Positions 272 to 56,273 of a stretch of 64,000 nt of DNA are shown here, piece after piece. The notes below the pieces were generated by a model. The model had not been told where the DNA came from. It did no database searches and saw nothing but the letters and a program-made list of their open reading frames with translations. The stretch spans positions 21,056-85,055 of the forward strand of contig JBGAUM010000002.1 in assembly GCA_044228625.1 (NCBI GenBank). The letters are read 5' to 3'. Made by a program: the position numbers and the translations under genes. Source of the DNA: Usitatibacteraceae bacterium. Lineage in GTDB: Bacteria > Pseudomonadota > Gammaproteobacteria > Burkholderiales > Usitatibacteraceae. Position 1 is the stretch's first letter; each line of letters starts with the position of its first letter.

Positions 272-380
272 TTATTGCGGTGCAGCAAGATTATACGAAA
301 ACCGAAAAGGGGCGCTTTGGGGGCATCCGGGTAAACACGGGACGCGTATGATCAAGCGAATTCAAGGCGGGGTGGATTTG

Positions 381-6661: not shown

Positions 6662-6747
6662 GGCAAACTCAAGGACTGGCGGGGCTTCCAGGCCAAAACA
6701 GCCTTGAAATGCCCGCCGGTATTGGGAGGAAGCGGCTCAGTGCGGGA

Positions 6748-7663: not shown

Positions 7664-7870
7664 GGGCAGATGTTAGCGTGAATTGCAACGGGAATGAACG
7701 CTGGTTTGCCGCGCTGCGTTGATGGACCCTGCGGCGGACCGCTACAGCGCGGGCAATTTAGCCGCGTTCCAGCGGCGTTTTGGCGCGAAATAGGTGCGCC
7801 CCGTCAATTTTTCAAGGTCTCGCTTGTGCCAGGCGCTGCAGGGCGCGGAGTCTGTGCTTAAATCCGGCTC

Positions 7871-38478: not shown

Positions 38479-38616
38479 ATCGTCCTTGATGGACGTGGCC
38501 GCGCATTCTGGTGGTGTCCGTCCCCATGTGTCCATGGGCGGAAACATGCGCCACTTTTTTCATGATATTGGCATTGCTTGGTAGTAGCACGGCTTCGTCG
38601 CAACGCGTTTCAAATG

Positions 38617-38640
38617 AAAACGGCCGGTTTCCCGGCCGTT
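38617..38640 (-). terminator. rho-independent terminator downstream of the tctC-like gene
   Basis: On the minus strand, aacggccggg aaa ccggccgtt is followed by ttcattt. Confidence 0.6.
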
Positions 38641-38664
38641 GTTGCGACTTCAAGTGTCAAACGA

Positions 38665-39651: not shown

Positions 39652-39698
39652 GGTTCCTCCAGTGATTTATGGCTGATGTTTTTCGCTTCGAATTCTGA

Positions 39699-40919
39699 TC
39701 ACGCGGCGATTCTATCCGCGGCACTCTTGCGCGCGCTTTCGGTGAGATATTGCATTGCGGCATCCACGCCACCCTTGTGATGGGCAATACCCGCAAGAGA
39801 CAAGCCCATTTCCACCCCGGCGACTGCGGCCAACACCGTGAGGTCGTTGGTGTCGCCCAAATGCCCGATACGGAATACCTTGCCCTTGAGCCGGCCCAGC
39901 CCCATGCCGAGCGACAGGTCAAAGTGTTCAAGGATCTTGCCGCGCAGGGCATCGGCATCCTGGCCCGCAGGGACGAATACCGCAGTGAGCGCCGGAGAAT
40001 ATTCCTCCGGATTCATTGCGACCAATTCCAGGCCCCAAGCCTTCACCGCGCGCCGCACCGCCTCGCCATGACGAACGTGGCGTGCAAACACATTCTGCAA
40101 TCCTTCCTCGTTCAGCATGTGGAGGGCTTCGCGCAATCCGAACAACATGTTGGTGGCAGGGGTGTAGGGAAAGTAGCCGGTCTTGTTGGACTCCAGCATG
40201 TCTTCCCAGTTCCAGAACGCGCGCGGCAGCTTGGCGTGCCTGGAGGCGGCCAGGGCTTTGGCGGAAACAGCATTGAACGACAACCCCGGTGGCAGCATCA
40301 ATCCTTTTTGCGAGCCGCCGACGGTCACGTCCACGCCCCATTCGTCGTGGCGGTAGTCCACGGAGCCGAGCGAGGAAATGGTATCCACCATCAGCAGGGC
40401 CGGATGGTTCGCGCGGTCGATCGCCTTGCGGACTGCCGCAATATTGGACGTCACCGCGGTGGCCGTTTCATTGTGGACCACGCAGACGGCCTTGATGGTG
40501 TGGGCTTTGTCTTCTGCAAGGCGCGCCTCAATGACATTGGCGTCCACGCCGTGGCGCCAGTCGGTGTCGATCAGTTCGGTGACCAGGCCCATGCGGGTGG
40601 CGAGCTTGTTCCAGAGCGACGCGAAGTGACCGGTTTCCACCATCAGCACCCGGTCTCCCGCGGAAAGCACATTGACCAACGCGGCCTCCCACGCCCCGGT
40701 CCCGGAGGCGGGATAAATGATGACTGGCTGCGCCGTCTGGAACACAGCCTTGATGCCATGCAGCACTTCGCGGCCCAGCACGCCAAAGGCCGGACCTCGA
40801 TGGTCGATGATCGGCATGTCGATGGCCCGCTGGATGCGGTCCGGGACGGGCGTGGGGCCCGGAATGTTCAAAAAGTGCCGCCCGGCACGGTGAGGTACAA
40901 GCGATGTTGATGCGGACAT
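39699..40919 (-). CDS. class V aminotransferase (serine-glyoxylate / alanine-glyoxylate type)
   Basis: The ATG at 40919 gives MSASTSLVPHRAGRHFLNIPGPTPVPDRI... The PLP-lysine context is GGSQKGLMLPPGLSF. Confidence 0.85.
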   Translation of the reverse strand: MSASTSLVPHRAGRHFLNIPGPTPVPDRIQRAIDMPIIDHRGPAFGVLGREVLHGIKAVFQTAQPVIIYPASGTGAWEAALVNVLSAGDRVLMVETGHFASLWNKLATRMGLVTELIDTDWRHGVDANVIEARLAEDKAHTIKAVCVVHNETATAVTSNIAAVRKAIDRANHPALLMVDTISSLGSVDYRHDEWGVDVTVGGSQKGLMLPPGLSFNAVSAKALAASRHAKLPRAFWNWEDMLESNKTGYFPYTPATNMLFGLREALHMLNEEGLQNVFARHVRHGEAVRRAVKAWGLELVAMNPEEYSPALTAVFVPAGQDADALRGKILEHFDLSLGMGLGRLKGKVFRIGHLGDTNDLTVLAAVAGVEMGLSLAGIAHHKGGVDAAMQYLTESARKSAADRIAA

Positions 40920-40993
40920 GGTCTTTTCCAAGGGGGTTTTCCGTACACTACGCAATTGTGCGCCGCGAAACCATAGCACCGGTCAATTCTTCG

Positions 40994-43993
40994 ATGTCCC
41001 AGATTCATTCAATACGCTTCATACCTCCGGCCAACCGCCATCCGCTCGCGGAACGGCTGGCACGCGAAGTGGAGGGCGATGTCCTGTTTGACGCGGCATC
41101 GCGGGGGCGCTATGCGACCGACGCATCGATCTACCAGATCATGCCGGTGGGGGTGGTGGTGCCCAAGACCCCCGAGGCCGCTCGAATTGCGGTGCAAATC
41201 GCGGTGGAGGCCGGCGTACCGGTGCTGCCGCGCGGCGGCGGAACTTCGCAATGCGGGCAGACGGTCGGGGCGGCGCTGGTCATCGACCACAGCAAGCACT
41301 TGAACCAGATGGTGTCGATGGACCCCGAGCAGCGGCGCGCCACGGTGCAGCCGGGGCTGGTGCTGGACCATCTCAATGCGCGGCTGAAATCGCACGGCCT
41401 TTGGTACCCGGTGGATGTCTCGACCTCGGCCCAGGCCACGCTGGGCGGCATGGCCGGCAACAATTCCTGCGGCTCTCGATCCATTGCTTACGGCAACATG
41501 GTGCACAACGTCGCAGGCATCGGCATGCTGCTGGCCGATGGGCGCGTGGCGCAGTTTGGCGAGGAGGGCGCCTGTACGGATCGCGCATTGGCCGCGCGTA
41601 TCCGCACCATTTGTGAGCGCGAGCGAGACGAGATCGCCCTGCGTTTTCCTCCGCTGCTTCGCCGCGTGGCCGGCTACAACCTCGACTGGGCGGCGCCTTG
41701 CGATCCGTTGAACTACAACAGCGCCGTCCCGAATCTCGCGCACCTGCTGGTCGGATCGGAAGGGACGTTGGGTGTATTCCAGACGCTGGACCTGAAACTC
41801 TCGCCCCTGCCGAAACACCGCGTGTTGGGCGTGGTGAATTTCCCCACGTTCTATCGCGCGATGGAAGTCACGCAGCACATCGTGACCTTGGGGCCGACCG
41901 CCGTGGAATTGGTGGATCGCACCATGATCGACCTCTCCCGGGAAAACCCGCTGTTCAGGCCGGTGATCGATGCGTCATTGATCGGTGAACCCGATGCCTT
42001 GCTGTTGGTCGAGTTCGCGGGCGACGACCGCTCCGCGTTGGAGAAGCGACTCGCCGACCTCGAAACGCTGCTGGCCGACCTTGGTCTACCGGGATCGGCG
42101 GTGAAAATGACGGATGCCGGCGCACAGAAAAAACTGTGGGATGTGCGCAAGGCCGGGCTCAACATCATGATGTCGATGAAAGGCGACGGAAAGCCCGTCA
42201 GCTTCATTGAGGATTGTTGCGTGCCGCTGGAACACCTGGCCGAATACACGCGGCGATTGACCGACGTGTTCACCAAGCACGGCACCAAGGGCACTTGGTA
42301 CGCACATGCATCCGTGGGCACATTGCACGTTCGCCCGGTGCTCGACATGCGGCGCGACGGCGCGACAAAAATGCGGGCCATCGCGGAAGAGGCGGCCGCG
42401 CTGGTCAAGGAATACAAGGGCGTGTATTCCGGCGAGCACGGCGACGGGCTGGTGCGCAGCGAGTGGATCGAGCCGTTCTTCGGGCCGCGCCTCACGGCGG
42501 TGCTCGGTGAGATCAAGGCCCTGTTCGACCCGAAGAACCTGATGAACCCCGGCAAGATCGTGTCGCCGCCCAAACAGGATGACCGGTCGCTGTTTCGATT
42601 TGCACCGGGCTACGCCACGCAGAATATTCAGACCGGCCTCGACTGGTCGAAAGAACTGGGGCTCGCGAGTGCCGTGGAGATGTGCAACAACAACGGCCAC
42701 TGCCGCAAATTCGATGCCGGCACCATGTGCCCGAGCTATCGCGCGACTGACGACGAACAGCACCTGACCCGGGGGCGCGCCAACACCCTTCGTCTCGCCC
42801 TTTCGAACCAGATGGATGGCGCGGGGATCGCGTCCGATGCAGTGCAAGAGGCGATGGACCTCTGCGTGGGATGCAAGGGTTGCAAACGCGAATGTCCCAC
42901 CGGTGTGGATATGGCCAAGATGAAGATCGAGGCCACTTATCAATTCAAGAAAGCCCATGGCTTTACGATCAAGGACCGGTTGGTGGCCTACCTGCCACGG
43001 TATGCCCGCTATGCCCCGATGTTCGCGTGGGCCTCGACCCTGCGAAATATCATTCCCGGAATGGCGGCACTGACGGAAGGATTCACCGGGTTTTCCGCCA
43101 AGCGCAAGCTGCCCGTCTGGCGGCGCGGATTGCTGGCCAGTGTCGGCGCCGCCAAATGGCAGGCAGCGATGCGCAAGGCGCGCGCTGAAAAGAGCGACGC
43201 GTACTTCGGCCCGGAACGCGATGTCGTGCTGTTCACGGATACCTTCGCCAATTACTTTGAGGCGCCGACCAAACTTTTTCCGGGGGCCAGCGTGGAAGCC
43301 GCAGCTGTCGTGCTGCAGCGCGCGGGCTACAACGTGGATTTGATTGGCGCGGCGACGGGCGACCGGCCGTTGTGTTGCGGCCGCACTTTTTTGGCGGCGG
43401 GCATGGTGGACGAAGCGCGGACCGAAGCGCGACGAACCCTGGACGCGCTGCTGCCCTATGTGCGGCGCGGCGTGCCCATCGTTGGATTGGAGCCCTCCTG
43501 CATCACGACGCTGCGGGATGAGTTCCTTTCCCTGTGGCCCGGGGAGGACGCGGAACTTCTGGCCAAGCAGTCCTTCCTGTTTGAGGAGTTCCTTTCACGC
43601 GAAAAGATGGAGGGCCGTCTCGATCCGGCACGTTTGCAGTTGCGCGCGCTGCCGGTGGAAGGCGTGCGCGTCCACGGGCACTGCCACCAGAAGGCCTTCG
43701 ATGTGTTTGAGCCGGTGGTCGAAGTACTCAAGTGGATTCCGGATCTGAAAGTCGAACCCATCGAATCGAGTTGCTGCGGCATGGCGGGTTCGTTCGGCTA
43801 CGACGCGAAACATCATGCGGTCTCCATGAAAATGGCGGAACAGGCGCTGTTGCCGGCGGTGCGCGGTGCGGGCGACAAGACCTTGATCGTGGCCGGCGGA
43901 ACCAGTTGCCGGACCCAAATCCTCGACGGTGCCAGCAAGCATGCTGTCCACCCCGCGGTGGTGCTTGCGGCCTCGATGGTGACCATGGCTTGA
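40994..43993 (+). CDS. FAD-binding and (Fe-S)-binding oxidoreductase, YdiJ-like (about 1000 aa)
   Basis: ATG at 40994. FAD_binding_4-type N-terminus (PRGGGTSQCGQ), GlcD-like GEHGDG, ferredoxin clusters (CNNNGHCRK..., CVGCKGCKRECP) and C-terminal CCG repeats (PSC..., SSCCGMAGSFGY). Confidence 0.85.
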   Translation: MSQIHSIRFIPPANRHPLAERLAREVEGDVLFDAASRGRYATDASIYQIMPVGVVVPKTPEAARIAVQIAVEAGVPVLPRGGGTSQCGQTVGAALVIDHSKHLNQMVSMDPEQRRATVQPGLVLDHLNARLKSHGLWYPVDVSTSAQATLGGMAGNNSCGSRSIAYGNMVHNVAGIGMLLADGRVAQFGEEGACTDRALAARIRTICERERDEIALRFPPLLRRVAGYNLDWAAPCDPLNYNSAVPNLAHLLVGSEGTLGVFQTLDLKLSPLPKHRVLGVVNFPTFYRAMEVTQHIVTLGPTAVELVDRTMIDLSRENPLFRPVIDASLIGEPDALLLVEFAGDDRSALEKRLADLETLLADLGLPGSAVKMTDAGAQKKLWDVRKAGLNIMMSMKGDGKPVSFIEDCCVPLEHLAEYTRRLTDVFTKHGTKGTWYAHASVGTLHVRPVLDMRRDGATKMRAIAEEAAALVKEYKGVYSGEHGDGLVRSEWIEPFFGPRLTAVLGEIKALFDPKNLMNPGKIVSPPKQDDRSLFRFAPGYATQNIQTGLDWSKELGLASAVEMCNNNGHCRKFDAGTMCPSYRATDDEQHLTRGRANTLRLALSNQMDGAGIASDAVQEAMDLCVGCKGCKRECPTGVDMAKMKIEATYQFKKAHGFTIKDRLVAYLPRYARYAPMFAWASTLRNIIPGMAALTEGFTGFSAKRKLPVWRRGLLASVGAAKWQAAMRKARAEKSDAYFGPERDVVLFTDTFANYFEAPTKLFPGASVEAAAVVLQRAGYNVDLIGAATGDRPLCCGRTFLAAGMVDEARTEARRTLDALLPYVRRGVPIVGLEPSCITTLRDEFLSLWPGEDAELLAKQSFLFEEFLSREKMEGRLDPARLQLRALPVEGVRVHGHCHQKAFDVFEPVVEVLKWIPDLKVEPIESSCCGMAGSFGYDAKHHAVSMKMAEQALLPAVRGAGDKTLIVAGGTSCRTQILDGASKHAVHPAVVLAASMVTMA

Positions 43994-44144
43994 TGGTAAA
44001 ACCCTAGGCCTGGCGCGGCGATTGAGCCGAAAATGGCCCGAAAACCTTGATGCGTCTTGGGTTTTCAAGATTTATCCCCAGATGAAGCCAATGACGTAGA
44101 GCAGTCGGTCATACTTCATCTTGCGGACTTTTCCTCATTCCTTC

Positions 44145-45806
44145 ATGCGCGTTTTTCTTGCCCTTCGCCAGTTGGCGGTTACCCGAGTTCAGTGGATCGC
44201 AATTGCCGCATTGTGGTTGTCGCTGGTTCCCAATCTCGCAACACTGGGCGCCTTTGCAAAGGCGCCGTCTGCGGGAGAGGGACTGCAGTGGCTGGCGTTT
44301 GTGGGCGTGGGATGGGTCTTCGTGTTTGCCATCAGCTTCATCGCCATGGCCTTGGTCGCGGCAATCTTTTGGGGGCGCGCACTCAAACCCGCCACCGCAA
44401 TCCTGCTGCTCGTCGCGTCAGTCCTGAGTTTCTTCACATTGTTTCTGGGCACCCAGTTCGATCGAACCATGGTGCTCAACCTCTTGCAAACGCACCAATC
44501 GGAAGCGCTGGAACTCGTGCATTGGCGGTTGATTGCCTGGGTTGCCTTGACTGGATTGTTGCCGGCGTGGGTCGCGCTACGGATCTCCCTCAAGTCAGAG
44601 CCGAAGTGGTGGCGGCAGTCGGGATTCGTCCTCCTGGGTTGCTTTGTCTTGTTGATCGTCACCTCGGCAGGCGTGTTTGCGCAATATTCGCGCTATGCGT
44701 CGGCGACGCGTAATCGTGCGATCACGTTTGACACCGTCGCGCCATGGAACCTGTTTGCCGCTTCAGTTCATTTGGCAGCGTCGCAGTGGGCGGCGCAAAC
44801 CGTGCGGGCGCCCCGCGGCCTTGACGCCAAGCAGGCCTACCTGCTGAAAAAGCCGCGATTGGTGTTTTTCCTGCTGGGAGAGACGGCCCGCGCGCAAAAC
44901 CATGGGCTCAACGGCTACGAGCGCGACACCACGCCGCGAATGAGGGCCGCAGGCGGCTATTACTTCCCGGACACAGAAAGCTGTGGCACGGCAACCTCGA
45001 TTTCGGTGCCGTGCATTTTTTCAGGCTTCGGGCGTGAAGCCTTCTCGCTCAAGAAAGGGTTGTCGAACGAGACGCTCATCGACGTCCTGCTTCGAGGCGG
45101 CGCTCAAGTTTGGTGGCGCGACAATGATTCGGGTTGCAAGGGCGTTTGCGAAAAGGCCGAGGTCATCGACCTCACCGGATCATCGGACCCACGCTGGTGT
45201 ACGGAAGCCGCAAACTGCTTTGACGAAATTCTTTTTGAAGGACTCGAGGAAAAACTCCGCAAGACCACGCGGGATACCCTCGTGGTGCTGCATCTCAAAG
45301 GCAGCCACGGCCCTGCGTACTACAAGCGTTATCCTGCGCGATTCGAGCAATTCGTCCCGGCCTGCAAGTCAAACGACCTGGCATCTTGTGACAACGCGGC
45401 TCTTCGCAACAGCTACGACAACTCGGTCCTGTATACCGACCACGTGGTGGGTGAATCCATCGAGATGCTCAAGCGCCTCGACAAGCAATTCGCCACGGGG
45501 CTGTTGTACGTGTCCGACCATGGCGAATCGCTGGGAGAAGGGGGGCTGTTCCTGCATGGGCTTCCCTATGCATTGGCGCCCAAGGAGCAGACGCGCGTTC
45601 CCATGTTTGCCTGGGTCTCCGCGGATTTTGTGAAGCTCGAAAACTGGGATGTGCGCTGCATGGCGGAACAGGTGAAGACTCCCCGGTCCCACGACAATGT
45701 CTATTCCACCATTCTTGGCTTGATGGAAATCGAAACTGCGGAATACAAGGTAGAACTGGACCTATTCGAGGCTTGCGACCGCGGAATCAACCATTTGAAA
45801 CGCTAG
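44145..45806 (+). CDS. eptA: lipid A phosphoethanolamine transferase (EptA/PmrC/MCR family)
   Basis: N-terminal 5-TM domain. The sulfatase-type domain has FFLLGETARAQN, the nucleophile context SCGTATSISVPCIFS, HLKGSHGPAYYKRYP, NSYDNSVLYTD and YVSDHGESLGE. Start is ATG 44145, or TTG 44121. Confidence 0.88.
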   Translation: MRVFLALRQLAVTRVQWIAIAALWLSLVPNLATLGAFAKAPSAGEGLQWLAFVGVGWVFVFAISFIAMALVAAIFWGRALKPATAILLLVASVLSFFTLFLGTQFDRTMVLNLLQTHQSEALELVHWRLIAWVALTGLLPAWVALRISLKSEPKWWRQSGFVLLGCFVLLIVTSAGVFAQYSRYASATRNRAITFDTVAPWNLFAASVHLAASQWAAQTVRAPRGLDAKQAYLLKKPRLVFFLLGETARAQNHGLNGYERDTTPRMRAAGGYYFPDTESCGTATSISVPCIFSGFGREAFSLKKGLSNETLIDVLLRGGAQVWWRDNDSGCKGVCEKAEVIDLTGSSDPRWCTEAANCFDEILFEGLEEKLRKTTRDTLVVLHLKGSHGPAYYKRYPARFEQFVPACKSNDLASCDNAALRNSYDNSVLYTDHVVGESIEMLKRLDKQFATGLLYVSDHGESLGEGGLFLHGLPYALAPKEQTRVPMFAWVSADFVKLENWDVRCMAEQVKTPRSHDNVYSTILGLMEIETAEYKVELDLFEACDRGINHLKR

Positions 45807-45860
45807 AGTTGACGACGGAGCGTTGAATCAGCCGAACCAACGCTTCGCCAATCGAAGGAC

Positions 45861-46343
45861 TTACTCGCTCAACGTCACGATCATGGCGTGAATGGCCTCA
45901 GACAGTTTTTTGCTGGCCAGTTCCGAGCACTGCTCTTTGGTTGCCATGGGCAGCGTGTCAAACGTGTTGGTGGTTTTGGCTGGCTTGAACAGCATCGTCT
46001 TGCCGTTGATCCCCAGCGGCAAGAGCATGACGCGCGCCGTCACCACACAAGCCTTGCCGGCGGTAAAGCCACCGCCGACCTCGGTCACAAAGCCCCATTT
46101 CTTGGGGGAATAGAGCTTTGCGGCCTTGGCGGGAATGTTTTCAATCCAACTGGCCTTCGCGGCATCTTTCGACAACAAGGTATCTGACGAGGCATCAACG
46201 ACAACATACGTTTGTGCGGGTTTTTCCTTGGGCTTCTTGGCCGCAGGCTTCGCGGCTTCAGGCGCTTTTGCAGGCTCATTGGCGGCAATGGCGCTGGTGG
46301 AGGCGATGAGCACGGCGGCGAGGAGTGCAAGTGTGTTTTTCAT
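45861..46343 (-). CDS. hypothetical secreted protein with a Lys/Pro/Ala-rich N-terminal linker
   Basis: 160 aa with signal peptide MKNTLALLAAVLIASTSAIA. It is co-directional with, and 97 nt downstream of, the SLOG-TM gene. Confidence 0.55.
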   Translation of the reverse strand: MKNTLALLAAVLIASTSAIAANEPAKAPEAAKPAAKKPKEKPAQTYVVVDASSDTLLSKDAAKASWIENIPAKAAKLYSPKKWGFVTEVGGGFTAGKACVVTARVMLLPLGINGKTMLFKPAKTTNTFDTLPMATKEQCSELASKKLSEAIHAMIVTLSE

Positions 46344-46440
46344 GGTTTCCCTGAGCAGACGAGTTGAGTGAGCGGCAAATCAATAAGCGAACAGTGTCGG
46401 GCAAACTGGCGTCACTGTCAAACCGGCGGAAGGCGGGGCT

Positions 46441-48174
46441 TTACCCGGAGACTTGGAACGCGTTTTTGCGGTGCATGAGCAGCCAACTCGCATTCTCGTC
46501 CAAGGCAAACTTGCCCAACGTGAACAGGCATTGCTCCTCGATGGCTTCGTTGCCTGCATTTCTTTCCAGCGTGGAGCGCGCATTGCGGAACAGCGCGCCC
46601 ATCAGTTCGTAACTCACCGACTGCTCGGCGTAGCCCATCGCTGAGGCATAGCCCTTGATCACGCCGCCCAGCAAGAAGAAGCTGGTTGAAAAGGCCGACG
46701 CCGCGATTTTGATGTGGACCGGCATCAACATCATGCTGGCAACGGCGGCCACGCCCACCAGCAACAACGCGCCCGTCAAGGCGACGTTGGCCAGAAGTTC
46801 GATGCGCCCCGCGGCAATCTTGCACTGCAGAGCCTTACCGGGTCTTTGCGTCGTACCGAGGTAGTACTGCTCCTGGCCGTCCACCCAGTACCGGCCGACA
46901 TCAATCCGGGACGGAACATAGGATGAGGGCGGCTCCCACTGCCAAAGGGGCGCCACCATGAACTGGATGTTTCGCAAGGCCTCGCGGACCCAGCCCACCT
47001 CGGTCTTGACCAGTTGCTGGTACTCCTCTGCAACGCCATGGTGGATGCCGGTGATCTGCCAGAAAAACTGGATGCGCAGACCCTCCGCGATCGCACGGTA
47101 TTCAATATAGCGGTCGCCGATTTGCGAGAGTGGCAGGCGAAAGATCGACAGGTAGAGGCCGTAACCCAATGCCGCCGCTGCACCATAGGCGATGAGCCAC
47201 AACATTTCTTTTTGCGTGGTGAAAGCAGCCTGAAAGAAGGCGCCCAAGACCACGGCAATTGAAACCACACGGACGGCAAGATCCCGCTTGCGTCGAAGCC
47301 GCACCGACACGGAATCCGCGTCGGCAAAGAAGCGAGCCAAGGGGCTGCCGATTTGGCCGAGGCGACCTTGCTCCTCGAGCGGCAGAAGCGACCGAATGCT
47401 GTTGGTATGGTTGGGTTCGTTGTCGATCCGGTTTTTTCGGGCGGCGACATTGAATCGCGAGAACTCCCTTGCCGATTTTCGATACGCCTTGTCCAGCTTT
47501 GACTCGGGAACGCGTTTGGGCTTGTGGTCCGGGTCACTCAGCCGGCGGACTGGAATGTGAATCAGCGAAGTGGTTTCGGGGCTGGAAAGCAAATCCGCGC
47601 TCAATGTAGGCGGACCATGGCGGCACAACTCGACAATCGCCGCGGTTCCATGATCTTCCCCGGGCTTGGCCGGCACGCCATCCCACAACGCAATGACCAG
47701 CTGTGCCTGGCGGACGATGAAAATGTTTTGCTCGCGCATCCGAGATCGATGCACTTCATCGGCCGACGTCGGTTCTTCCGCAGGCGTGGCTGCGGCGGGA
47801 ATCTCGATGACCCGCCAGCACTTGGCCTGATACTCGTCGAAACTGGCGCGCGCTGTGTCGTCAGTCATTGACGCTCTCACGTCTGCGGCCGCGCAAGGCA
47901 AAACGCCGACGACCGCCCAATTTCGGATCATCGCTTCATCCGCGACCAATCGGTCGGTGGGGCTTGTGAGTCCGGTCAACAGGATCAGCGGTGCCTCGCG
48001 CGCCGTTCGCTCCACGCGTCGAAGCGTGTCCCGAACGCGCGCCCGAATCTGGCTTTCGTCGTCCGGGACCAGGTTGTCATGACTGGTCACCGCCACCACC
48101 ATCGGGACCAGGGAGGCGTCCGCAAGCGCCTCGCGCAGGTCCGCCCGAACCCCGCTGATTTTTTCTCTTCGCAT
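46441..48174 (-). CDS. SLOG-like nucleotide-sensor domain fused to a 4-TM (2 x 2TM, SLATT-like) membrane module; candidate effector
   Basis: 577 aa. The N-terminal ~190 aa are Rossmann-like (VVAVTSHDN..., LILLTGLTSPTDRLVADEA, VGVLP, LVIALWDGVPAKPGEDHGTAAIVE). TM pairs are VRVVSIAVVLGAFFQAAF / MLWLIAYGAAAALGYGLYLSIF and LLANVALTGALLLVGVAAVASMM / IKIAASAFSTSFFLLGGVIKGYA. The first pair is followed by an amphipathic YIEYRAIAEGLRIQFFW-type helix. Confidence 0.7.
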   Translation of the reverse strand: MRREKISGVRADLREALADASLVPMVVAVTSHDNLVPDDESQIRARVRDTLRRVERTAREAPLILLTGLTSPTDRLVADEAMIRNWAVVGVLPCAAADVRASMTDDTARASFDEYQAKCWRVIEIPAAATPAEEPTSADEVHRSRMREQNIFIVRQAQLVIALWDGVPAKPGEDHGTAAIVELCRHGPPTLSADLLSSPETTSLIHIPVRRLSDPDHKPKRVPESKLDKAYRKSAREFSRFNVAARKNRIDNEPNHTNSIRSLLPLEEQGRLGQIGSPLARFFADADSVSVRLRRKRDLAVRVVSIAVVLGAFFQAAFTTQKEMLWLIAYGAAAALGYGLYLSIFRLPLSQIGDRYIEYRAIAEGLRIQFFWQITGIHHGVAEEYQQLVKTEVGWVREALRNIQFMVAPLWQWEPPSSYVPSRIDVGRYWVDGQEQYYLGTTQRPGKALQCKIAAGRIELLANVALTGALLLVGVAAVASMMLMPVHIKIAASAFSTSFFLLGGVIKGYASAMGYAEQSVSYELMGALFRNARSTLERNAGNEAIEEQCLFTLGKFALDENASWLLMHRKNAFQVSG

Positions 48175-48349
48175 GGGGCATTATGTGAATTCGCGGGCCG
48201 CAACGCAATGATGGGCAGTGAATGAAGACGCGCGTTGCTTGCAGTGTGGCCCTGCGTTAGGCATAGTAGGTGCGAATCTCTCAAGACTGGCTGACCGAGT
48301 CCGCCCAAATGGCCCGGATCGCGGCAGTCTGAAAGATGAAAGCCAAACG

Positions 48350-50161
48350 ATGTCCTATCAGCCTGTCCAAAAACCAATAGACATTCAGGCAGTAAGACGA
48401 GCCATTTCGGCAGGCGATGCACTCGCGGCAATCGACCTGTTGCGCGACGCGGGTGCCGAACCACAGACGCTTGAGAAGAGGCAGCTATTGGCCATCGCCC
48501 TGCTGCGAGCCGGGGCGCTCAAGGACGCCCAGCGGGCCGTCCGGGAATTGATCGAAGAAGGTCACGATGATGAGGAAACGCTCGGCCTCGCCGCGCGCGA
48601 GGCCAAATCCCGCTACTTGCATGGTGAACCGGACGCGTTGAAGGAAGCCCGCGCCGCGTATTTGCGGGCCTTTCAAGTCACGCGTGGCACCTGGACGGGC
48701 ATCAACGCCGCAACATTGGCGCTGCTGGATGGTGATGAAGACGAAGCAAAGCGACTGGCGACGGAAGTCGGCGCTTTGCTGGCAGCGGCTCCCGCGGGGT
48801 CGCGAGCCACGTATTGGCATGAAGCGACGTCTGGCGAAGTGGCGCTCTTGCTGGGCGATCTCCAGAAGGCCATCGCGCATTATTCGGCGGCGCGCCGCAT
48901 CGAGCCGAGGGCGTACGGTAATCACCGATCGGTGCGCGACAACGCCTTGGCGATTCTTTCCGCCAGGGGATTGCCGTCGTCCACGCTGCAGGGGGTATTT
49001 CCCGGCGTGGGCGTGGCAGCTTTCTCCGGCCACATGGTGGATTCCCCGGGCCGGACACCACCGAGGTTTCCTCCGCATCTGGTGGGGAGCGTGGCCACTT
49101 CAATCGAACAGGCCATCCGCGAGCACGGTGTGGAGATCGGCGTTGCGGGAGCGGCGTGTGGTGGCGACATCCTGTTCCTGGAGGCCATGCAAAGGCTTGG
49201 CAAGGAAACCATCATTGTGCTTCCCCATCCCGTCGAAGCATTTCGAAAAGTGAGCGTGACGGATCCTGCCGGTGAGGCATGGGGCAAGCGATTCGACACC
49301 GTGGTTGCAAGCGCCTCAGAACTGATCGTCCTTGCGCCCCATTTGGGTGAAGACCTGGCCTACCAGTTTCAGGGCGCCGTCATGGCCGGAATCTCCTTGC
49401 AGCGCGCACGCGCGATTAATGGTCATGCGGTGGGGCTGGCACTATGGGATGGACTTCAGGGCGGGGTCGGTGGCACGGGGGCGGTCGTCGAGGAATGGGC
49501 GGCACGCGGCATCGAGGTGGCCTGCTTGCCTTTGGGGGAGGGAAGGGCAACGCGATTGGCACCGATCGAGGCACAGCAACGGCTTGCCACGATGGATCTA
49601 CGTCATGCTGCAGGACAGCGTGTCGTCTCCATCCTCTTTGCGGATGCCGTCGGTTTCAGCAGGCTGGGAGAATTTCAGGTCAAGGCGTTTGTGCGTGAAT
49701 TCTGGGGCCGGGCGGCAAAAATTGTCGACGCCATCCCGGATGGCCAGGTCTTGTCTGCCAATACCTGGGGGGATGGCCTTTTCCTGGTGATCGAGGATGC
49801 GGTCACGGCTGCAGACGCCGCGCTTGAGTTATCGGCCATGGTCACTTCGACGGAATGGAATCGTTTGGGGTTGCCATCCGACACCAACATCCGGATCGCG
49901 GTACATGCCGGGCCAGTGTACGAGGTGGAAGACCCCATCACGAAGCACCGTGGCTTTGCCGGGATGCATATCAGCCGGGCCGCGCGCATTGAGCCGGTCA
50001 CCCCCCCGGGGGAAGTGTATGTCAGCGAAGCATTTGCAGGCCTGTTGGAATTCGACGACCACCAAGACCGGTTCCTGTGTGAGTTCGTCGGGACGGTGCC
50101 GATGGCAAAAGAGTATGGTAGGTTTCGGACCTACCGGCTGGCCTATCGCAAAATGCCTTGA
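48350..50161 (+). CDS. TPR (DUF4071/TRAFs-binding-like) + SLOG-like + class III nucleotidyl cyclase fusion protein; candidate signal generator
   Basis: Start is ATG 48350, or GTG 48218. N-terminal helical repeats carry GINAATLALL and YWHEATSGEVALLLGDLQKAIAHY. The middle region VAAFSGHMVDSPGRTPPRFPP...GVAGAACGGDILFLEAM...IIVLP...GLALWDGLQGGVGGTGAVVEE matches the neighbour's N-terminal domain. The C-terminal cyclase motifs are ILFADAVGFS, NTWGDGLFLV, RIAVHAGPV and ISRAARIE. Confidence 0.75.
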   Translation: MSYQPVQKPIDIQAVRRAISAGDALAAIDLLRDAGAEPQTLEKRQLLAIALLRAGALKDAQRAVRELIEEGHDDEETLGLAAREAKSRYLHGEPDALKEARAAYLRAFQVTRGTWTGINAATLALLDGDEDEAKRLATEVGALLAAAPAGSRATYWHEATSGEVALLLGDLQKAIAHYSAARRIEPRAYGNHRSVRDNALAILSARGLPSSTLQGVFPGVGVAAFSGHMVDSPGRTPPRFPPHLVGSVATSIEQAIREHGVEIGVAGAACGGDILFLEAMQRLGKETIIVLPHPVEAFRKVSVTDPAGEAWGKRFDTVVASASELIVLAPHLGEDLAYQFQGAVMAGISLQRARAINGHAVGLALWDGLQGGVGGTGAVVEEWAARGIEVACLPLGEGRATRLAPIEAQQRLATMDLRHAAGQRVVSILFADAVGFSRLGEFQVKAFVREFWGRAAKIVDAIPDGQVLSANTWGDGLFLVIEDAVTAADAALELSAMVTSTEWNRLGLPSDTNIRIAVHAGPVYEVEDPITKHRGFAGMHISRAARIEPVTPPGEVYVSEAFAGLLEFDDHQDRFLCEFVGTVPMAKEYGRFRTYRLAYRKMP

Positions 50162-50284: not shown

Positions 50285-52030
50285 TCAGCCGCGCGAACGC
50301 GTTCCAATGACAAAGTACATGTCGATGGCTCCCTTGCCCTTGGCATCGACCTTGCCCCGATATTCGCATTCGAATTCTTCCTGCACGAGATCGTAAGTGT
50401 AGGCTGAAATATTGACGCGGCCTGGCTCGCTGGCGCTTTCGAAGCGGGACGCGAGATTGACGGTGTCGCCCCAAATGTCGTACGCATATTTGCGTTTGCC
50501 CACGACGCCGGCGACGACGGGCCCTGAATGTACGCCGATGCGGATACCCCATTTGAATGGCGACCTCTTGTTGCGTTCGGCCACGTATTCCGCAATGCCC
50601 AGCGCGGCGCGTACGCATCGCAGCGCGTGATCCCCACAAGGCTTGGGCAGCCCGGCGGCGGCCATGTACGCATCGCCGATGGTCTTGATTTTCTCGACGC
50701 CACAACGATCCGTGATGTCATCGAATGCGGCAAACAACTCGTTGAGCTCCGCCACCATGCGGTCGGCCGGAATGCTCGCGACGGCCTGCGTGAAACCGGA
50801 AAAATCCGTGAAAAGGATGGTGACCGATTCAAAGCGGGCCGGCTTTGACTCGCCGGTGCTGGACAATTCGTTTGCCACATCCGCGGGAAGGATGCTGTGC
50901 AGCAGATCCTGGGTACGCGCCTGCTCGGCCTTCAACTGGGCTGTGCGTTCCTCCACTTTTTGTTCAAGTACGGCGTAGGACTGTTTGAGGTGACTGCCCA
51001 TCGCATTGAACTGCCCCGCCAATTCTTCGAGTTCGTCGCCCGTCTGAATGTCAATTTTGCGTTCAAAGTTGCCCCCCCCGATTTCCTTGGCACCCTCCGC
51101 AAGGACCCCGAGCGGTCTCACCAGGCGCTTGGCTAGAAAAAAGCTCGCCGCAACGGAGATCACCAGGCCTGCTGCGAGCAATACCAATGCCCGAATGATC
51201 ACCGGCGTCGTGGCCTCCAGCGCCTCTGCGCGAGGGGTATCCACGAAGACCCGCCACCCCAGAAAGTCGATCGGAGAGTGCGCAGAGATCACAGGCTCCT
51301 GGGCAATGTTGACGCCCATTGAGGACGGCTGCCCTTTCAGCGCCCCGGACACCTGCGGCAGGGCCATAAGATTGGTCTTTTTCAGCACCAATGAAATATC
51401 GGGATGGGCGATCAACGTTCCTGAACCATCCACGACGTAGGTGACGCCCGCTTTTCCGGACCTGATCTTGGACACCACGTTCCAAACCAGTTTCAGGTTC
51501 ACTTCGGCTAACACCGCACCGCCGCCCAATGCGGGCTTGATAATGGTCATGTAAGGTTCGGTCCCTTTCAGGAAATACACCGGGCCAAAACTGGTCTTGC
51601 CTGCCTTGGCAGACGCGTACAACGGATTCGTCGATTGATCGGTACTGGAGCCGCTCGAATCCATGGCCAGCCGTGAGACTCTTGCGCGCTCAATGGCGCT
51701 CTTGTCGATCCATGCGGCTTCGGTAACGGCGGGTACCTGCCGCATGAGCTTGAGCAGCGCGATGCGCCGTTGCTCGATCTCATCACCACTGCCAAACGTG
51801 ACGGGCAATGCCGCCCAGCCCATCTGGTGCTCGATATCAACCACAAACTGCTCAATGCGAATCGCCGCAGAAACCGATTTTTCTGCCTGCAACTCTGTGA
51901 GCTGCGCCTCGGTCTCCTTGACCGAGAAATAGGCGCCGATTCCGCCGCTGAGCATCAGCAAACCGGCCACCAACGACACAATCAATGTGGCGTACTTGGG
52001 GAACAGCCGCCAACGGCGCATTAGCTGCAT
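50285..52030 (-). CDS. membrane adenylate/guanylate cyclase with a periplasmic Cache-like sensor and HAMP
   Basis: TM1 YATLIVSLVAGLLMLSGGIGAYF, a ~270-aa periplasmic region (GVTYVVDGSGTLIAHPD), TM2, then HAMP (RPLGVLAEGAKEIGGGNF...DELEELAGQFN). The class III cyclase part has ILFTDFSGFT, IKTIGDAYMAA, RIGVHSGPVVAGVVG and WGDTVNLASRFE. Start is ATG 52030, or 52021, or TTG 52066. Confidence 0.85.
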   Translation of the reverse strand: MQLMRRWRLFPKYATLIVSLVAGLLMLSGGIGAYFSVKETEAQLTELQAEKSVSAAIRIEQFVVDIEHQMGWAALPVTFGSGDEIEQRRIALLKLMRQVPAVTEAAWIDKSAIERARVSRLAMDSSGSSTDQSTNPLYASAKAGKTSFGPVYFLKGTEPYMTIIKPALGGGAVLAEVNLKLVWNVVSKIRSGKAGVTYVVDGSGTLIAHPDISLVLKKTNLMALPQVSGALKGQPSSMGVNIAQEPVISAHSPIDFLGWRVFVDTPRAEALEATTPVIIRALVLLAAGLVISVAASFFLAKRLVRPLGVLAEGAKEIGGGNFERKIDIQTGDELEELAGQFNAMGSHLKQSYAVLEQKVEERTAQLKAEQARTQDLLHSILPADVANELSSTGESKPARFESVTILFTDFSGFTQAVASIPADRMVAELNELFAAFDDITDRCGVEKIKTIGDAYMAAAGLPKPCGDHALRCVRAALGIAEYVAERNKRSPFKWGIRIGVHSGPVVAGVVGKRKYAYDIWGDTVNLASRFESASEPGRVNISAYTYDLVQEEFECEYRGKVDAKGKGAIDMYFVIGTRSRG

Positions 52031-52131
52031 GGCCCACGCAGTTGCATCACGGATTTCATTGCGCAAGTCTAAGCGATGATTCGTAAGGCGGGGCCCACCG
52101 ACATGCGCTCCCTTGACGGATACTTGCAGCG

Positions 52132-52798: not shown

Positions 52799-55768
52799 AT
52801 GCGTTCCCGCTGCTTTCATATTTTCCTGAGCGCAATCTTGTGGGGCCTATGCACGGTTGGCGCTTCGAACCCGGCCGATGCGGAGACCCCAAAAACCGCA
52901 CCACCGTCAAGCGTAGCGGACGCTGGCGATCGTGCGGGATCCGCTGTGTCTCAATTGAGGATCGACCGGTGGCAGACGGAACAAGGCTTGCCCTTGAACA
53001 CCGTGCAAACTGTGTTTCAAAGTTCTAGCGGGCATCTGTGGGTAGGTACCGCCGGCGGGTTGGCGCGTTTTGACGGCGTGCGATTTACGACATTCGAGGA
53101 AGCTGCGTTACCGGGCATCTTCTCAAAGCCGATTTTTGGAATCTTTGAAGATTCGGCCGGATCCATTTGGTTTGGGCACCATCAAGGGGCGGTGCGGTGG
53201 CGAGAGGGGCGCTTTGAAACCGTATTTGATGCAGACATCACGGATCGAAAGCGAGTTTGGTCCTTTGTCGAGCATCCGAAGGGCACTGTGTGGGCGGCGA
53301 CGGAAAATGGCTTGGTCCGGTGGGAAACCGGAAAGGGCGTCACCAAAATCTACAAAACTTCCGATGGTCTTCCTGTCAATCGCTTGCGTTCGTTGGCCCT
53401 GGATCGCGATGGCACGCTCTGGATTGGGACCACCGGCGGCGGTTTGGTGTCGTTCGGCGGGAGCCAGTTTGTCGTCAAGAGTCCTGCCAACGGTTTTCCC
53501 CATGCGGAAGTCCGGCATGTCTTGGCAAGTGCGGAAGGCGGCGTATGGGCGGCCACCGCAGGCGGCGGATTGGTTCACGTGCTCCGGGACAAGCAACGGG
53601 TCTTCGGATTGAAGGAAGGATTGCCGACCAATCAACTGACTCACCTGGCCAACGCACCGGATGGCACGCTTTGGATTGGCACTTGGGGATCGGGCATCGT
53701 CCGATACCGCGATGGACGATTCGATACGCTGGCCTCGGCAGGCGGGCTGGCGGGCGACCAGATCTGGTGTCTGCTCGCCGACCGGGAGAACAGCGTTTGG
53801 GTCGGCACATGGTCGGGCGGGCTTAACCGGTTGAGGTCGCGACCGTTTGTGCTGGTCGGCAAGCCGGAGGGCCTGACGCACGACAATGTGCGTTCCGTGT
53901 TGCATCGCAAAGACGGCACCGTTTGGGTGTCGGCGTCCGGCGGCGGTATCAGCCGGCTCGAAAATGACGGCGTGAAGCCTTTGGGCCTCCGCGACGGGCT
54001 CCCGACACTGGAAACGTCGGCGCTATACGAGGATACCGATGGGTCGATGTGGATCGGCACGTACACCGAGGGCGCTGTTCGATGGTTCAGCGGCCGCACC
54101 CAACGCTTCGGCGCCGGTCAAGGATTGCCCAGCGTGGACGTTCGGTCGTTCCTTCGCGATTCCCGCGGTTACTTGTGGGTGGGTACCAAGGCGGGCGTTG
54201 CGCGTTGGAATGGCAAGGCGTTTGAAACCATCAAGGGTCCCAATGCGCCGACCGAAGGTGTCGCGGCCATGCTGGAAGACAGGCAAAAGCGCGTCTGGTT
54301 TGGCACCACGGGCGGCGGGTTGTACAAGTTTGAGGCAGGAGAATTTTCGGTGTTGACCCGAAAGGAAGGGTTGTCTTCCAATTGGATCATTTCGCTTTTT
54401 GAGGACAGTCGCGGCGCGTTGTGGGCGGGAACCGGGGGGGAAGGCATCATCCGCATCAAGGCCGATCGCGTCAGCGTGATTCGCCCTGCGGATGGAATCT
54501 GGGACGGCGTTGTTCAAACTCTCCTTCCCGACCGTTTCGGAAACCTCTGGGTGACCTGCAACCGCGGGTTCTACAAGGTCTCGCAAGCCGAACTTGACGC
54601 GTTCGCGGATGGCCGGGCAAGCAAGGTGAACTCGACCGGATTCGGACCCGGAGATGCGCTTCGCAGCACGACATTTGCAGGAGGTCTGCAACCTGCGGGC
54701 AGCATCGACGCCCGTGGACGCTTGTGGCTTGCAAGCTTCAGCGGCCTCGTCATTGTGGACCCAGCGCGCCTGCCCGGCGAAGGGCGCGCGCCTGTCGCAG
54801 CTGTTGAGGAAGCCCTTGTCAATGGCCATGCGGCAAATTGGCGCAGAGGCGTCGTTGTGCCAGCAGGCCCGCAATCGGTCTCCATCCGGTACTTCACCAC
54901 CTCCTTGAAGGAATCGGAGCGCACGCAGTTTCGCTATCGCATGGAGGGGTTGCCCGGTGACTGGATCATCGCGGGAAAGAACCGCGAAGCAACTTTTCCC
55001 TCGCTTCCTTATGGAAACTACAGGTTCCTGGTGTCCGCCTCACTCGACGGCAAGAACTGGGGTGAAATGGCGGAGCTGCCTGTGACCGTCGAGCCTTTCT
55101 TTTGGCAAACGCGGTGGTTTCTGGCGATGTCCCTTGCGGGGTTGGTGGCGCTCGCATTGGGAGTCTTCAAATGGCGCACGCAGCAATTGCGTTCACGCCA
55201 AGCGGAGCTTGAGAGATTGGTGGCAGAGAAGACCGAGGCATTGCGGCAGGCCAACGAACACCTTTCGCGCTTGTCCATGGCCGATCCGCTGACCGGTCTG
55301 GCGAACCGTCGCCGACTCGAGGAGGTGCTGCGAGATGAATGGCGCCGCGCGGAGCGATCGGGGTCCTCTCTGGCCATCCTGATGGCGGATATTGATGCAT
55401 TCAAGGCCTACAACGACTCATTGGGTCATTTGGCGGGAGATCGTTGCCTTTCCGACGTTGCCCATACGTTGGCCGAGTGCGCGAGCCGGCCCGGAGATTT
55501 CATTGCCCGATACGGCGGGGAGGAGTTTCTGGTGGTGCTGCCCGGGCTGGATGTCGAGCAGGCCCTGGGATTGGCCGAGCGCATGCGCCAAGCCTGCGAG
55601 TGGCGCCAGATGCCTCATCCCGCCAATCCTGCGGCTCCCGTGGTGACCATCAGCGTGGGCGCAGCGGCTACGATTCCGCTCGCAGGGGAAACCGTGGAAT
55701 CATTGATCCACCAGGCGGACGCTGCGCTGTATCGCGCCAAGCAGGAAGGGCGAAACCGTTGCCGCTGA
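52799..55768 (+). CDS. sensor diguanylate cyclase: signal peptide, two-component-regulator beta-propeller repeats, Y_Y_Y-like domain, TM, GGDEF
   Basis: 989 aa with many repeats of the type D..G.lWiGT.gGl.r. The TM is FLAMSLAGLVALALGVF, followed by a coiled coil. The GGDEF domain has DPLTGLANRR, DIDAFKAYND and RYGGEEF. Confidence 0.88.
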   Translation: MRSRCFHIFLSAILWGLCTVGASNPADAETPKTAPPSSVADAGDRAGSAVSQLRIDRWQTEQGLPLNTVQTVFQSSSGHLWVGTAGGLARFDGVRFTTFEEAALPGIFSKPIFGIFEDSAGSIWFGHHQGAVRWREGRFETVFDADITDRKRVWSFVEHPKGTVWAATENGLVRWETGKGVTKIYKTSDGLPVNRLRSLALDRDGTLWIGTTGGGLVSFGGSQFVVKSPANGFPHAEVRHVLASAEGGVWAATAGGGLVHVLRDKQRVFGLKEGLPTNQLTHLANAPDGTLWIGTWGSGIVRYRDGRFDTLASAGGLAGDQIWCLLADRENSVWVGTWSGGLNRLRSRPFVLVGKPEGLTHDNVRSVLHRKDGTVWVSASGGGISRLENDGVKPLGLRDGLPTLETSALYEDTDGSMWIGTYTEGAVRWFSGRTQRFGAGQGLPSVDVRSFLRDSRGYLWVGTKAGVARWNGKAFETIKGPNAPTEGVAAMLEDRQKRVWFGTTGGGLYKFEAGEFSVLTRKEGLSSNWIISLFEDSRGALWAGTGGEGIIRIKADRVSVIRPADGIWDGVVQTLLPDRFGNLWVTCNRGFYKVSQAELDAFADGRASKVNSTGFGPGDALRSTTFAGGLQPAGSIDARGRLWLASFSGLVIVDPARLPGEGRAPVAAVEEALVNGHAANWRRGVVVPAGPQSVSIRYFTTSLKESERTQFRYRMEGLPGDWIIAGKNREATFPSLPYGNYRFLVSASLDGKNWGEMAELPVTVEPFFWQTRWFLAMSLAGLVALALGVFKWRTQQLRSRQAELERLVAEKTEALRQANEHLSRLSMADPLTGLANRRRLEEVLRDEWRRAERSGSSLAILMADIDAFKAYNDSLGHLAGDRCLSDVAHTLAECASRPGDFIARYGGEEFLVVLPGLDVEQALGLAERMRQACEWRQMPHPANPAAPVVTISVGAAATIPLAGETVESLIHQADAALYRAKQEGRNRCR

Positions 55769-55804: not shown

Positions 55805-56161
55805 CTAGAGAAAAGCCGACACGCCGCGCAACCGCATCGCCATGGAACGCATGATATGCAACGCAAAGTCAGGATTGGCGGCCGTCAATTCGCGGAACTT
55901 GACGTCATCAATGGCGATGAAATTGCAGTCTTCGCGTGCCACAAGGGTCGCCGAACGCGGCGAATCATCAATAATGGCCATTTCGCCCACGATGTCGCCC
56001 GGTTGCAAAGTCTCGACCACTTTGCCCCGGATCAGGACATCCGCGCGTCCAGCCATCAGCACCAGCATGGATCGGCCGGGGTCTCCTTCCGAAAAAACCG
56101 TGTGGCCGACGGGAACGGAAAGGATGTCGGTCTGGTGCATCAGGAATTCTTCGAGTTTCAT
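55805..56161 (-). CDS. stand-alone cyclic-nucleotide-binding domain protein
   Basis: ATG at 56161 preceded by GGGAG. About 118 aa with FSEGDPGRSMLVLMAGRADV...LQPGDIVGEMAIIDDSPRSATLVA, the FGE..l....pRsAt cNMP cassette. No HTH follows. Confidence 0.8.
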   Translation of the reverse strand: MKLEEFLMHQTDILSVPVGHTVFSEGDPGRSMLVLMAGRADVLIRGKVVETLQPGDIVGEMAIIDDSPRSATLVAREDCNFIAIDDVKFRELTAANPDFALHIMRSMAMRLRGVSAFL

Positions 56162-56273
56162 TCTGGACTCCCGGATCGAATGACCAAGCATAGCGCAATT
56201 TGGCGCGTGGCCGAGTGCCCTCGCGGTTTAGAATGCGCTTCTTTTCCTGCCGGACGCCACAAGCCGAAGCCAG

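Follow-up and report, generated by a model that had tools for sequence, protein, structure and literature searches.

TIR-based immune signalling is common to bacteria, plants and animals, and the charting of its receptors and outputs continues. In ThsA, the SLOG domain is the binding site of gcADPR (3'cADPR), which is made by TIR proteins, and canonical cyclic ADP-ribose (cADPR) activates both ThsH, a SLATT protein, and ThsI, which combines tetratricopeptide repeats (TPR) with a CMP hydrolase domain; ThsH and ThsI are at times found in one TIR operon (bioRxiv 10.64898/2025.12.03.692087). SLATT domains have been predicted to act as membrane effectors gated by derivatives of ADP-ribose, and YpsA-like SLOG domains to be sensors of cADPR (PMC9503650). 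TPR-S domains were predicted by Burroughs and Aravind to read signals derived from nicotinamide adenine dinucleotide (NAD) (bioRxiv 10.64898/2025.12.03.692087; 10.1101/2023.05.26.542521), and the conflict systems that they proposed in 2020 (J Bacteriol 202:e00365-20, as summarised in bioRxiv 10.1101/2023.05.26.542521) link a TPR-S core to TIR, to YspA/LSDAT-type SLOG, to transmembrane (TM) proteins and to other effectors. Here we analyse a divergent gene pair in a 64-kb stretch of DNA from a member of the Usitatibacteraceae, referred to as the window. Gene A (46441..48174, minus strand, 577 amino acids) encodes a predicted membrane effector with a SLOG domain and four TM helices of SLATT-like type (SLOG-4TM), and gene B (48350..50161, plus strand, 603 amino acids) encodes a protein in which a TPR-S module and a SLOG domain precede a class III nucleotidyl cyclase. 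The locus holds one half of a larger system of recognisable type, and the conserved unit consists of four genes: a SLOG-4TM or other SLATT protein, the TPR-S-SLOG-cyclase protein, a SIR2-TIR protein and an nSTAND1-WD40 protein. With a probability of roughly 45%, A and B may be receiver and effector modules for a TIR-made, NAD-derived signal, the generator and the sensor of which are not encoded in cis in the window.

By analogy, the full cassette would work like Thoeris and would stand closest to types VII (ThsB and ThsH) and VIII (ThsB and ThsI), with which it has in common a TIR-linked, SLATT-like candidate membrane effector and a sensor-TPR protein, as well as, in the relatives of the locus, an apparent layout of one generator plus two receivers. 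However, the SLATT-like module of A is extended by a SLOG domain and by another hairpin of two TM helices (2TM). In B the TPR module is N-terminal, a SLOG domain replaces the CMP-hydrolase/DrHyd domain of ThsI, and a class III cyclase forms the output. The TIR domain of the cassette is moreover fused to SIR2 and accompanied by a separate nSTAND1-WD40 NTPase, and the window is without TIR. Type I Thoeris (ThsB and the SIR2-SLOG protein ThsA) likewise employs a SLOG receptor of a cyclic ADP-ribose isomer, and ligand binding drives ThsA oligomerisation; on the other hand, the SLOG domains of A and B belong to another family, nearest to YAcAr and DprA, their fusion partner is a membrane module or a cyclase, and SIR2 sits on the TIR protein. 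The likeness to the TPR-S conflict systems, which were noted computationally, lies in this set of associated components and in the match of B to the Pfam model named for TPR-S.

Pycsar (PycC with a TM or TIR effector gated by cyclic nucleoside monophosphates, cNMPs) also places a class III-type cyclase beside a membrane effector, but A lacks a cNMP-binding domain, the cyclase of B carries TPR-S and SLOG domains, and the partners are TIR and STAND proteins. Panoptes (mCpol and 2TM-beta) combines a nucleotide generator with a TM effector as well; its generator fold and its effector are unrelated to those described here, and its signal is constitutive and inhibitory, whereas B looks gated. An earlier annotation of the locus from its letters only, hereafter the sequence-only reading, had described the Panoptes effector as SLOG-2TM, which published descriptions give as 2TM-beta. 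Membership in Pycsar, CBASS or Panoptes was rejected, as the Pfam scan found no cyclic-nucleotide-binding domain (PF00027) in A and PADLOC returned no matches to these systems. Neither Pfam nor PADLOC detected a CD-NTase or mCpol domain in A, B or their neighbours. The PADLOC run that had been proposed as a check yielded no defence model for A or B, nor for their typical relatives or the nSTAND1 protein, and the neighbours were matched only via their TIR domains. In the literature covered, which a 2020 survey of TPR-S lies outside, experiments on the four-gene cassette, the SLOG-4TM family or the TPR-S-SLOG-cyclase protein did not turn up, and searches of that literature for bacterial TPR-S, nSTAND1 and DUF4071 systems gave no matches.

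A guard mechanism in the manner of Panoptes would have B produce a nucleotide constitutively that holds A in the off state, until phage sponges or phosphodiesterases deplete immune nucleotides, A is released and the cell dies. A sensorless generator with a TM effector does resemble the mCpol-2TM-beta pair and the minimal diadenylate cyclase guard systems, and a divergent layout would permit A and B to be expressed separately. However, the TPR-S and SLOG domains ahead of the cyclase argue for gated rather than constitutive activity, the conserved cassette holds a STAND sensor and a TIR protein, and homology to mCpol or 2TM-beta is absent, so that we regard this mechanism as highly improbable.

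The four-gene unit emerges from the surroundings of the relatives of B, a family with at least 667 full-length homologues. Ten independent contexts from outside the population of the window were compared (eleven when the window is included), and a TIR or TIR-like gene lies near B in all ten of them. The order TM effector, B, SIR2-TIR, nSTAND1-WD40 occurs in five lineages, including the closest relative (locus L005, A 83% identical), in which A and B are divergent as in the window and the SIR2-TIR gene (69% identical at the protein level to that of L006) and the nSTAND1-WD40 gene follow B. In L006 and L101 the genes for A, B, SIR2_2-TIR_2 and nSTAND1-WD40 all point in the same direction, and in L011/L012 a 312-amino-acid SLATT_1-like protein is encoded divergently from B, again followed by SIR2-TIR and nSTAND1-WD40; the L011 protein is unrelated to the A profile and without SLOG, i.e. 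a different SLATT-type protein. L001 displays A, B and SIR2(-TIR), with the contig ending within the SIR2 part, before any TIR domain. In L102, two TIR genes, a gene for a 528-amino-acid predicted lipoprotein (Cys-containing signal peptide, no Pfam matches) and an A-like gene (490 amino acids) precede B. The remaining four contexts are without A or a SLATT partner: L008/L009, where a SAM-TIR-STAND-TPR gene overlaps the start of B; L104, where a RyR-B fusion is followed by TIR-nSTAND1-WD40; L103, with a TIR gene at 1.4 kb on the opposite strand; and L010, with a DUF4062-TPR gene divergent from B (DUF4062 is TIR-like). A TIR gene encoded together with the effector, as in Thoeris, is thus present in L005, L006, L101, L011/L012, L102, L104, L008 and L103. 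Altogether, the A-B pair recurs in six independent loci and a seventh has the different SLATT protein beside B, so that a SLATT-type membrane protein adjoins B in 7 of the 11 independent contexts. The deposited B protein of L005 (P0023) is truncated to 465 amino acids because a run of 100 N bases (9631-9730), masked or unresolved, lies inside the gene.

Two further loci from a plasmid collection, which itself holds neither A nor full-length B, touch upon the B family. On a 1.82-Mb Novosphingobium replicon (L093; 3622-5268 on the plus strand, 5773-7248 on the plus strand and 7263-7916 on the minus strand), the gene after a ThsB-like TIR-TPR gene encodes a TPR-S and SLOG protein, the C-terminal 140 or so amino acids of which resemble a cyclase domain stripped of its catalytic motifs, with a Crp-type cNMP-binding regulator convergent on it. 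A plasmid (L094) encodes a 176-amino-acid protein of the B SLOG type after a giant TIR protein.

The A family was delimited by an exhaustive search with a hidden Markov model (HMM), which matched 10,149 representative proteins (clusters at 50% identity) at E ≤0.001, of which 2,651 reach E ≤1e-30; almost every one of the 150 top matches spans the full length of the profile, and most measure 560-630 amino acids. A word-indexed homologue search had returned 18 clusters, and 3 loci among 185,000 species genomes. The resulting notion of A as a rare orphan family was rejected in view of the exhaustive search; rarity applies only to the subfamily that shares 39% identity or more with the A protein of the window. 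The surroundings of the family were surveyed in 80 metagenome loci, the members of which are mostly 23–29% identical to A. A TIR open reading frame (ORF) lies within 5 kb of the A-family gene in 40 of these 80 loci, mostly directly adjacent, and TIR is found nearby in 28 of the 44 loci with at least 6 kb of flank. TIR genes are the commonest neighbours, a TIR-TPR protein of about 760 amino acids being the top partner, and no full-length B-like gene stands beside an A-family gene in any of the 80 loci. The close subfamily itself pairs with TIR-STAND-TPR proteins and without B in L002, L003 and L016. Since the family pairs with TIR in this way, the SLOG domain of A would generally need no cyclase product.

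The sequence-only reading had taken the locus for a self-contained unit, in which the cyclase of B generates the signal and the SLOG domain of A reads it. The independent tie of each family to TIR speaks against this proposal, as does the conserved unit of four genes, of which the window carries half. What is left of the generator-to-effector step is the lower part of a possible cascade from TIR to B to A. Conservation of the pair across genomes, which had been put forward as a test, gave a divided result: A and B do recur together, as described above, and each family also occurs with TIR and without the other. The remark that the pair has no further defence genes beside it holds for the window, though not for the relatives, which are flanked by TIR, SIR2 and STAND genes; the underlying idea of a conflict system gains from the company kept by the relatives (SIR2-TIR, nSTAND1-WD40, TIR-STAND-TPR).

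Several observations were made along the A-family loci. In L002 (766-5975) and L003 (9447-13713) the A-like gene lies amid VWA, PP2C and giant kinase genes, in dense conflict-island contexts that also hold a CAP12/PCTIR-like TIR, a metallophosphatase and the TIR-STAND-TPR gene. In L032 a contig-cut ORF (2-463, plus strand), with a C-terminus similar to the B profile in its TPR-S part (E 7e-13), is followed directly by a distant A-like gene (564-2246, plus strand; 25% identical); the two could represent a SLOG-4TM protein and a TPR-S partner of ThsI-like type. Families without Pfam matches recur beside A-family genes, measuring about 170 amino acids (11 loci; e.g. L077 6935-7447), about 147 amino acids (8 loci; e.g. 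L084 1579-2022) and about 400–480 amino acids (6 loci; e.g. L047 6592-7806).

A and B are related to each other by their SLOG domains, located at amino acids 22-208 of A (47551..48111, minus strand) and 218-393 of B (49001..49528, plus strand). BLASTP finds no match between the two proteins. Profile-profile alignment by hhalign, on the other hand, joins amino acids 22-186 of A to the middle domain of B with a probability of 98.3% (E 2e-14, 147 columns), running through the GH, GxD helix, VLP and ALWDG..GGT blocks, which are the very blocks that had been aligned by eye when the same Rossmann-like domain was first proposed for both proteins. Control alignments of the N-terminal domain of A with the TPR module or the cyclase of B, and of the middle of B with the C-terminal half of A, were empty. 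A second, independently chosen pair of alignments gave E 7e-12, and an HMM built on the B middle domain matches A-family proteins directly (best E 7e-9). The two domains are homologous, and the alternative of two unrelated Rossmann-like domains was rejected on the strength of the profile-profile alignment.

The assignment of this domain to SLOG, likewise proposed from the letters, is borne out by predicted structure, although no curated profile threshold is reached. Foldseek matches the AlphaFold2 (AF2) model of A in the Protein Data Bank (PDB) to DprA (4ljk and 3uqz, probability 1.0), ShosA (8zva), TM1055 (1rcu) and the N-termini of TRPM proteins, all of them SLOG-type folds; the N-terminal domain of A accordingly has a three-layer Rossmannoid alpha/beta architecture as in DprA, LOG and YpsA. 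The list of PDB matches for the B model is dominated by class III cyclases; among viral models (BFVD), it matches a 153-amino-acid DprA-like phage protein (template modelling (TM-) score of 0.81 on the target, E 3e-5). Sub-threshold Pfam matches add to the picture for A, including one to Nuc_deoxyrib_tr at amino acids 132-178 of the window protein. YAcAr is matched by 7 of 15 A-family N-terminal domains (best E 6.6e-5, or 1.8e-5 with the full-length protein) and DprA by 2-3 members; of 16 B middle domains one matches DprA (E 0.005), missing the Pfam threshold. No curated SLOG-clan profile is reached at its own threshold by either domain, and SLOG proteins were absent from the results of PDB sequence searches, whether these used whole proteins or domain profiles. 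As curated models and PDB profile searches fall short, both domains represent divergent SLOG families without a model of their own. The SLOG motifs of A are unchanged between loci with and without B. At the Gly-rich/polar loop behind strand 1 and the GxD helix cap, the family consensus reads GHRD and AEGAD, and the window copy SHDN and TSPTD; of the 63 highly conserved positions of A, the window protein has lost the consensus residue at 9, of which 8 fall in the SLOG domain (also QY to RM), and the sister A of L005 carries part of this drift.

In the window, the second half of the cassette is missing. DNA synteny with L005 extends from 38612 to 50142 and ends at the 3' end of B; beyond it, L005 has the SIR2-TIR and nSTAND1-WD40 genes, and the window has signalling genes instead. 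Neither TIR, SIR2 or STAND sequence nor remnants thereof were found anywhere in the 64 kb, and the TIR generator that Thoeris encodes with its effector is accordingly lacking here. The genes in place of it are a dCache-HAMP class III adenylate cyclase convergent with B (50285-52066, minus strand, 188 bits), a RibD_C gene, a Reg_prop/Y_Y_Y-GGDEF diguanylate cyclase (52799-55768, plus strand) and a stand-alone cNMP-binding protein of 128 amino acids (55805-56191, minus strand), and all of them except RibD_C form a cyclic-nucleotide signalling cluster. The same layout is seen on all six contigs with identical B; five of these also carry A, and the sixth ends within the A side.

This isolated position would fit an autonomous two-gene system after the manner of Pycsar or CBASS, in which the TPR module of B senses infection, its cyclase makes a cyclic nucleotide and the SLOG domain of A reads it without any TIR. 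In the window and on the six identical-B contigs, the pair is surrounded only by housekeeping and signalling genes, both genes are intact and under purifying selection (see below), and the divergence of the SLOG loops of the window A could reflect a switch of ligand. Against this stand the TIR or TIR-like gene in all ten other B contexts and the closest relative, in which SIR2-TIR and nSTAND1-WD40 follow right after B, at the very point where synteny breaks. A also lacks a cNMP-binding domain of the Pycsar-effector kind, and PADLOC returned neither Pycsar nor CBASS. We therefore consider an autonomous pair quite improbable.

Both genes are intact and of full length, and both are under purifying selection: when the window is compared with L005, the ratio of nonsynonymous to synonymous substitution rates (dN/dS) amounts to 0.079 (A) and 0.097 (B), against 0.074 for the flanking EptA and 0.077 for a GlcD-like gene. 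As the synonymous divergence (dS) between the two is saturated (about 1.5), a recent relaxation of selection would be invisible in these values. The pair might be a stranded remnant without a present role, or might have been recruited, together with the neighbouring signalling genes, into a non-immune cyclic-nucleotide physiology. The missing generator and sensor genes, the neighbourhood rich in signalling genes and the concentration of the conserved-position deviations of A in its SLOG domain are consistent with such a fate. Full-length ORFs, the retention of every family-invariant residue in B, dN/dS values of 0.08–0.10 equal to those of housekeeping neighbours, and the presence of the identical pair in several samples make it rather improbable.

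The ORFs themselves are as had been called from the sequence, i.e. two large divergent genes with a spacer of 175 bp, or of 43 bp if translation of B begins at a GTG at 48218 (647 instead of 603 amino acids). As B homologues measure about 600–610 amino acids and public gene calls on identical contigs begin at the ATG, the start at 48350 is favoured, and with it the 175-bp intergenic region (48175..48349), which presumably holds the promoters of both genes. A scan of this region for promoters and terminators was uninformative and found no consensus sigma-70 site.

In its AF2 model (predicted local distance difference test, pLDDT, 80; predicted TM-score, pTM, 0.80), A consists of an alpha/beta domain at amino acids 25-208, followed by long helices. 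The hydrophobicity scan marks four hydrophobic helices, at amino acids 299-317 and 327-345 and at 464-482 and 488-506, i.e. two 2TM hairpins. The first, with its flanking helices (amino acids 287-369; 47068..47316, minus strand), is SLATT/DUF4231-like: the window protein scores 19 bits on DUF4231 in this range (E 0.0019), under the cut-off of 24.7, and also gives a sub-threshold match to the NCBIfam model SLATT_3 (E 0.015). Across the family the same hairpin matches DUF4231 in 12 of 28 members, SLATT_1 in 4 (best E 7.9e-7) and SLATT_3 in 4, and some relatives exceed the threshold of a SLATT-type model (e.g. P0017, 28 bits on DUF4231). DUF4231 is a member of the SLATT clan. The second hairpin (46657..46785, minus strand) is supported by the hydrophobicity scan and by long helices in the model. 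The four TM helices in two 2TM modules, as first described from the letters, agree with the scan and the model, and a SLATT resemblance of the first hairpin recurs across the family. Some A-family members (P0146, 836 amino acids; L048 6288-9713, an ORF of 1141 amino acids) have two tandem SLOG domains before the TM module or a long N-terminal extension; such proteins suggest fusions with further signalling domains.

B, the AF2 model of which reaches a pLDDT of 94.5, begins with a TPR-S module of the MAP3K TRAFs-binding type (amino acids 12-213; 48383..48988, plus strand), visible as a helical repeat in the model. It scores 61.9 bits on the TPR-S model PF20308 (cut-off 27.6; amino acids 70-168 of the 647-amino-acid form) and 34.4 bits on MAP3K_TRAF_bd (PF13281, formerly DUF4071). 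The C-terminal domain (amino acids 423-599; 49616..50146, plus strand) matches Guanylate_cyc (PF00211) with 23.7 bits, just over the cut-off of 21.9, and Foldseek aligns it with RhGC, Rv1900c and CyaB at E of about 1e-9 and target TM-scores of about 0.8. A DUF4071/TRAFs-binding TPR and a class III cyclase had both been named in the sequence-only reading, and the matches to TPR-S and Guanylate_cyc lie above their cut-offs. A RyR domain (PF02026) is fused N-terminally in a subset of B-like proteins (P0068, P0072, P0109 and others), and TrkA_N-RyR proteins adjoin A-like genes in four metagenome loci (e.g. L034 5827-7518).

The active site of the cyclase was read by alignment with the product of a neighbouring gene of the window, a canonical adenylate cyclase. 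The metal-binding Asp residues in FADAVGFS and TWGDG and the phosphate/transition-state Arg residues in IRIAVH and RAARIE are invariant in 103 sequences, and the window copy keeps all family-invariant residues. The base-specifying Lys, however, is Asn (NTWGD, invariant), the position of its partner Asp is lost in a gap, and Ser replaces the transition-state Asn, so that the canonical base-specifying pair (Lys/Asp for ATP, Glu/Cys for GTP) and the transition-state Asn are absent. As both metal Asp and both Arg residues are invariant, the cyclase is probably active and makes some product, the nature of which cannot be predicted because the base-specifying and transition-state residues are non-canonical.

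A probably active cyclase invites a two-tier cascade, in which a TIR-made messenger would act on the TPR-S module of B, in line with what has been proposed for ThsI, and the cyclase product would act on the SLOG domain of A, which then permeabilises the membrane. The product would in addition feed back on the SLOG domain of B, and the generator-effector step would sit below TIR and STAND. The invariant catalytic residues speak for this cascade, as do the SLATT-type neighbour in 7 of 11 contexts and the replacement of the base-specifying Lys by Asn, as an unusual messenger of its own would allow; besides TPR-S, moreover, the SLOG domains are the only candidate nucleotide sensors in the cassette. 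However, the A family, its close subfamily included, occurs mostly with TIR and without B, the SLOG motifs of A are the same in either setting, B lacks an A or SLATT partner in four contexts, and the SLATT partner in L011/L012 is without SLOG. We hence consider the cascade doubtful. A related and somewhat less likely version regards B as a converter, the cyclase of which would be gated by a TIR-made NAD derivative via TPR-S and SLOG and would release a non-canonical product as the ligand of the SLOG domain of A; in genomes like that of the window, the half from B to A might then run alone. If true, this would represent a two-messenger relay joining Thoeris-type and Pycsar-type signalling, and the SLOG domain of A would be the first shown to read a cyclase product.

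Parallel reception of a TIR-made signal by A and B is the most economical explanation, because A and B are each found with TIR in the absence of the other, their SLOG domains are homologous and share one set of motifs, and the motifs of A are independent of B. In a full cassette, we hypothesize, the STAND-WD40 protein would sense the invader and the SIR2-TIR protein would convert NAD+ into a messenger derived from ADP-ribose. The SLOG domain of A would read this messenger, and A would oligomerise, its SLATT-type hairpins breaching or depolarising the inner membrane. In parallel, the TPR-S and SLOG domains of B would read the messenger and switch on the cyclase, yielding a nucleotide product. 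In the genome of the window, either a TIR enzyme from another locus would supply A and B with the signal, or the two genes constitute a stranded remnant.

Some of the data weigh against such parallel reception. It leaves the apparently active cyclase of B without a receptor in cis and its purpose unexplained, and the SLATT-type neighbour in 7 of 11 B contexts would also fit a B that feeds this neighbour. Both genes look maintained in the window without TIR and may work alone, although dS is saturated. The odd substitutions in the SLOG loops of the window A could mean a changed ligand or decay. Finally, TIR domains fused to STAND or SIR2 may be NAD-depleting effectors rather than makers of a signal.

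The locus points to two families that PADLOC does not cover, SLOG-4TM proteins that are mostly TIR-linked and the TPR-S-SLOG-cyclase proteins, and to a candidate immune cassette in which these two putative receivers join a STAND sensor and a SIR2-TIR enzyme. A cyclase output on a sensor of a TIR-made signal would mean either conversion of one messenger into another or a cyclase that acts as an effector. As TPR-S is also found in animal ASK kinases, its ligand matters beyond bacteria. The copy in the window, being without a generator, offers a natural test of whether the receiver half works alone.

Just downstream of A, the window encodes a secreted, Lys/Ala/Pro-rich protein of 160 amino acids without a Pfam match (45861-46343, minus strand). 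It probably belongs to the flanking core genome, since it is kept in L005 (84%) but not at other A loci.

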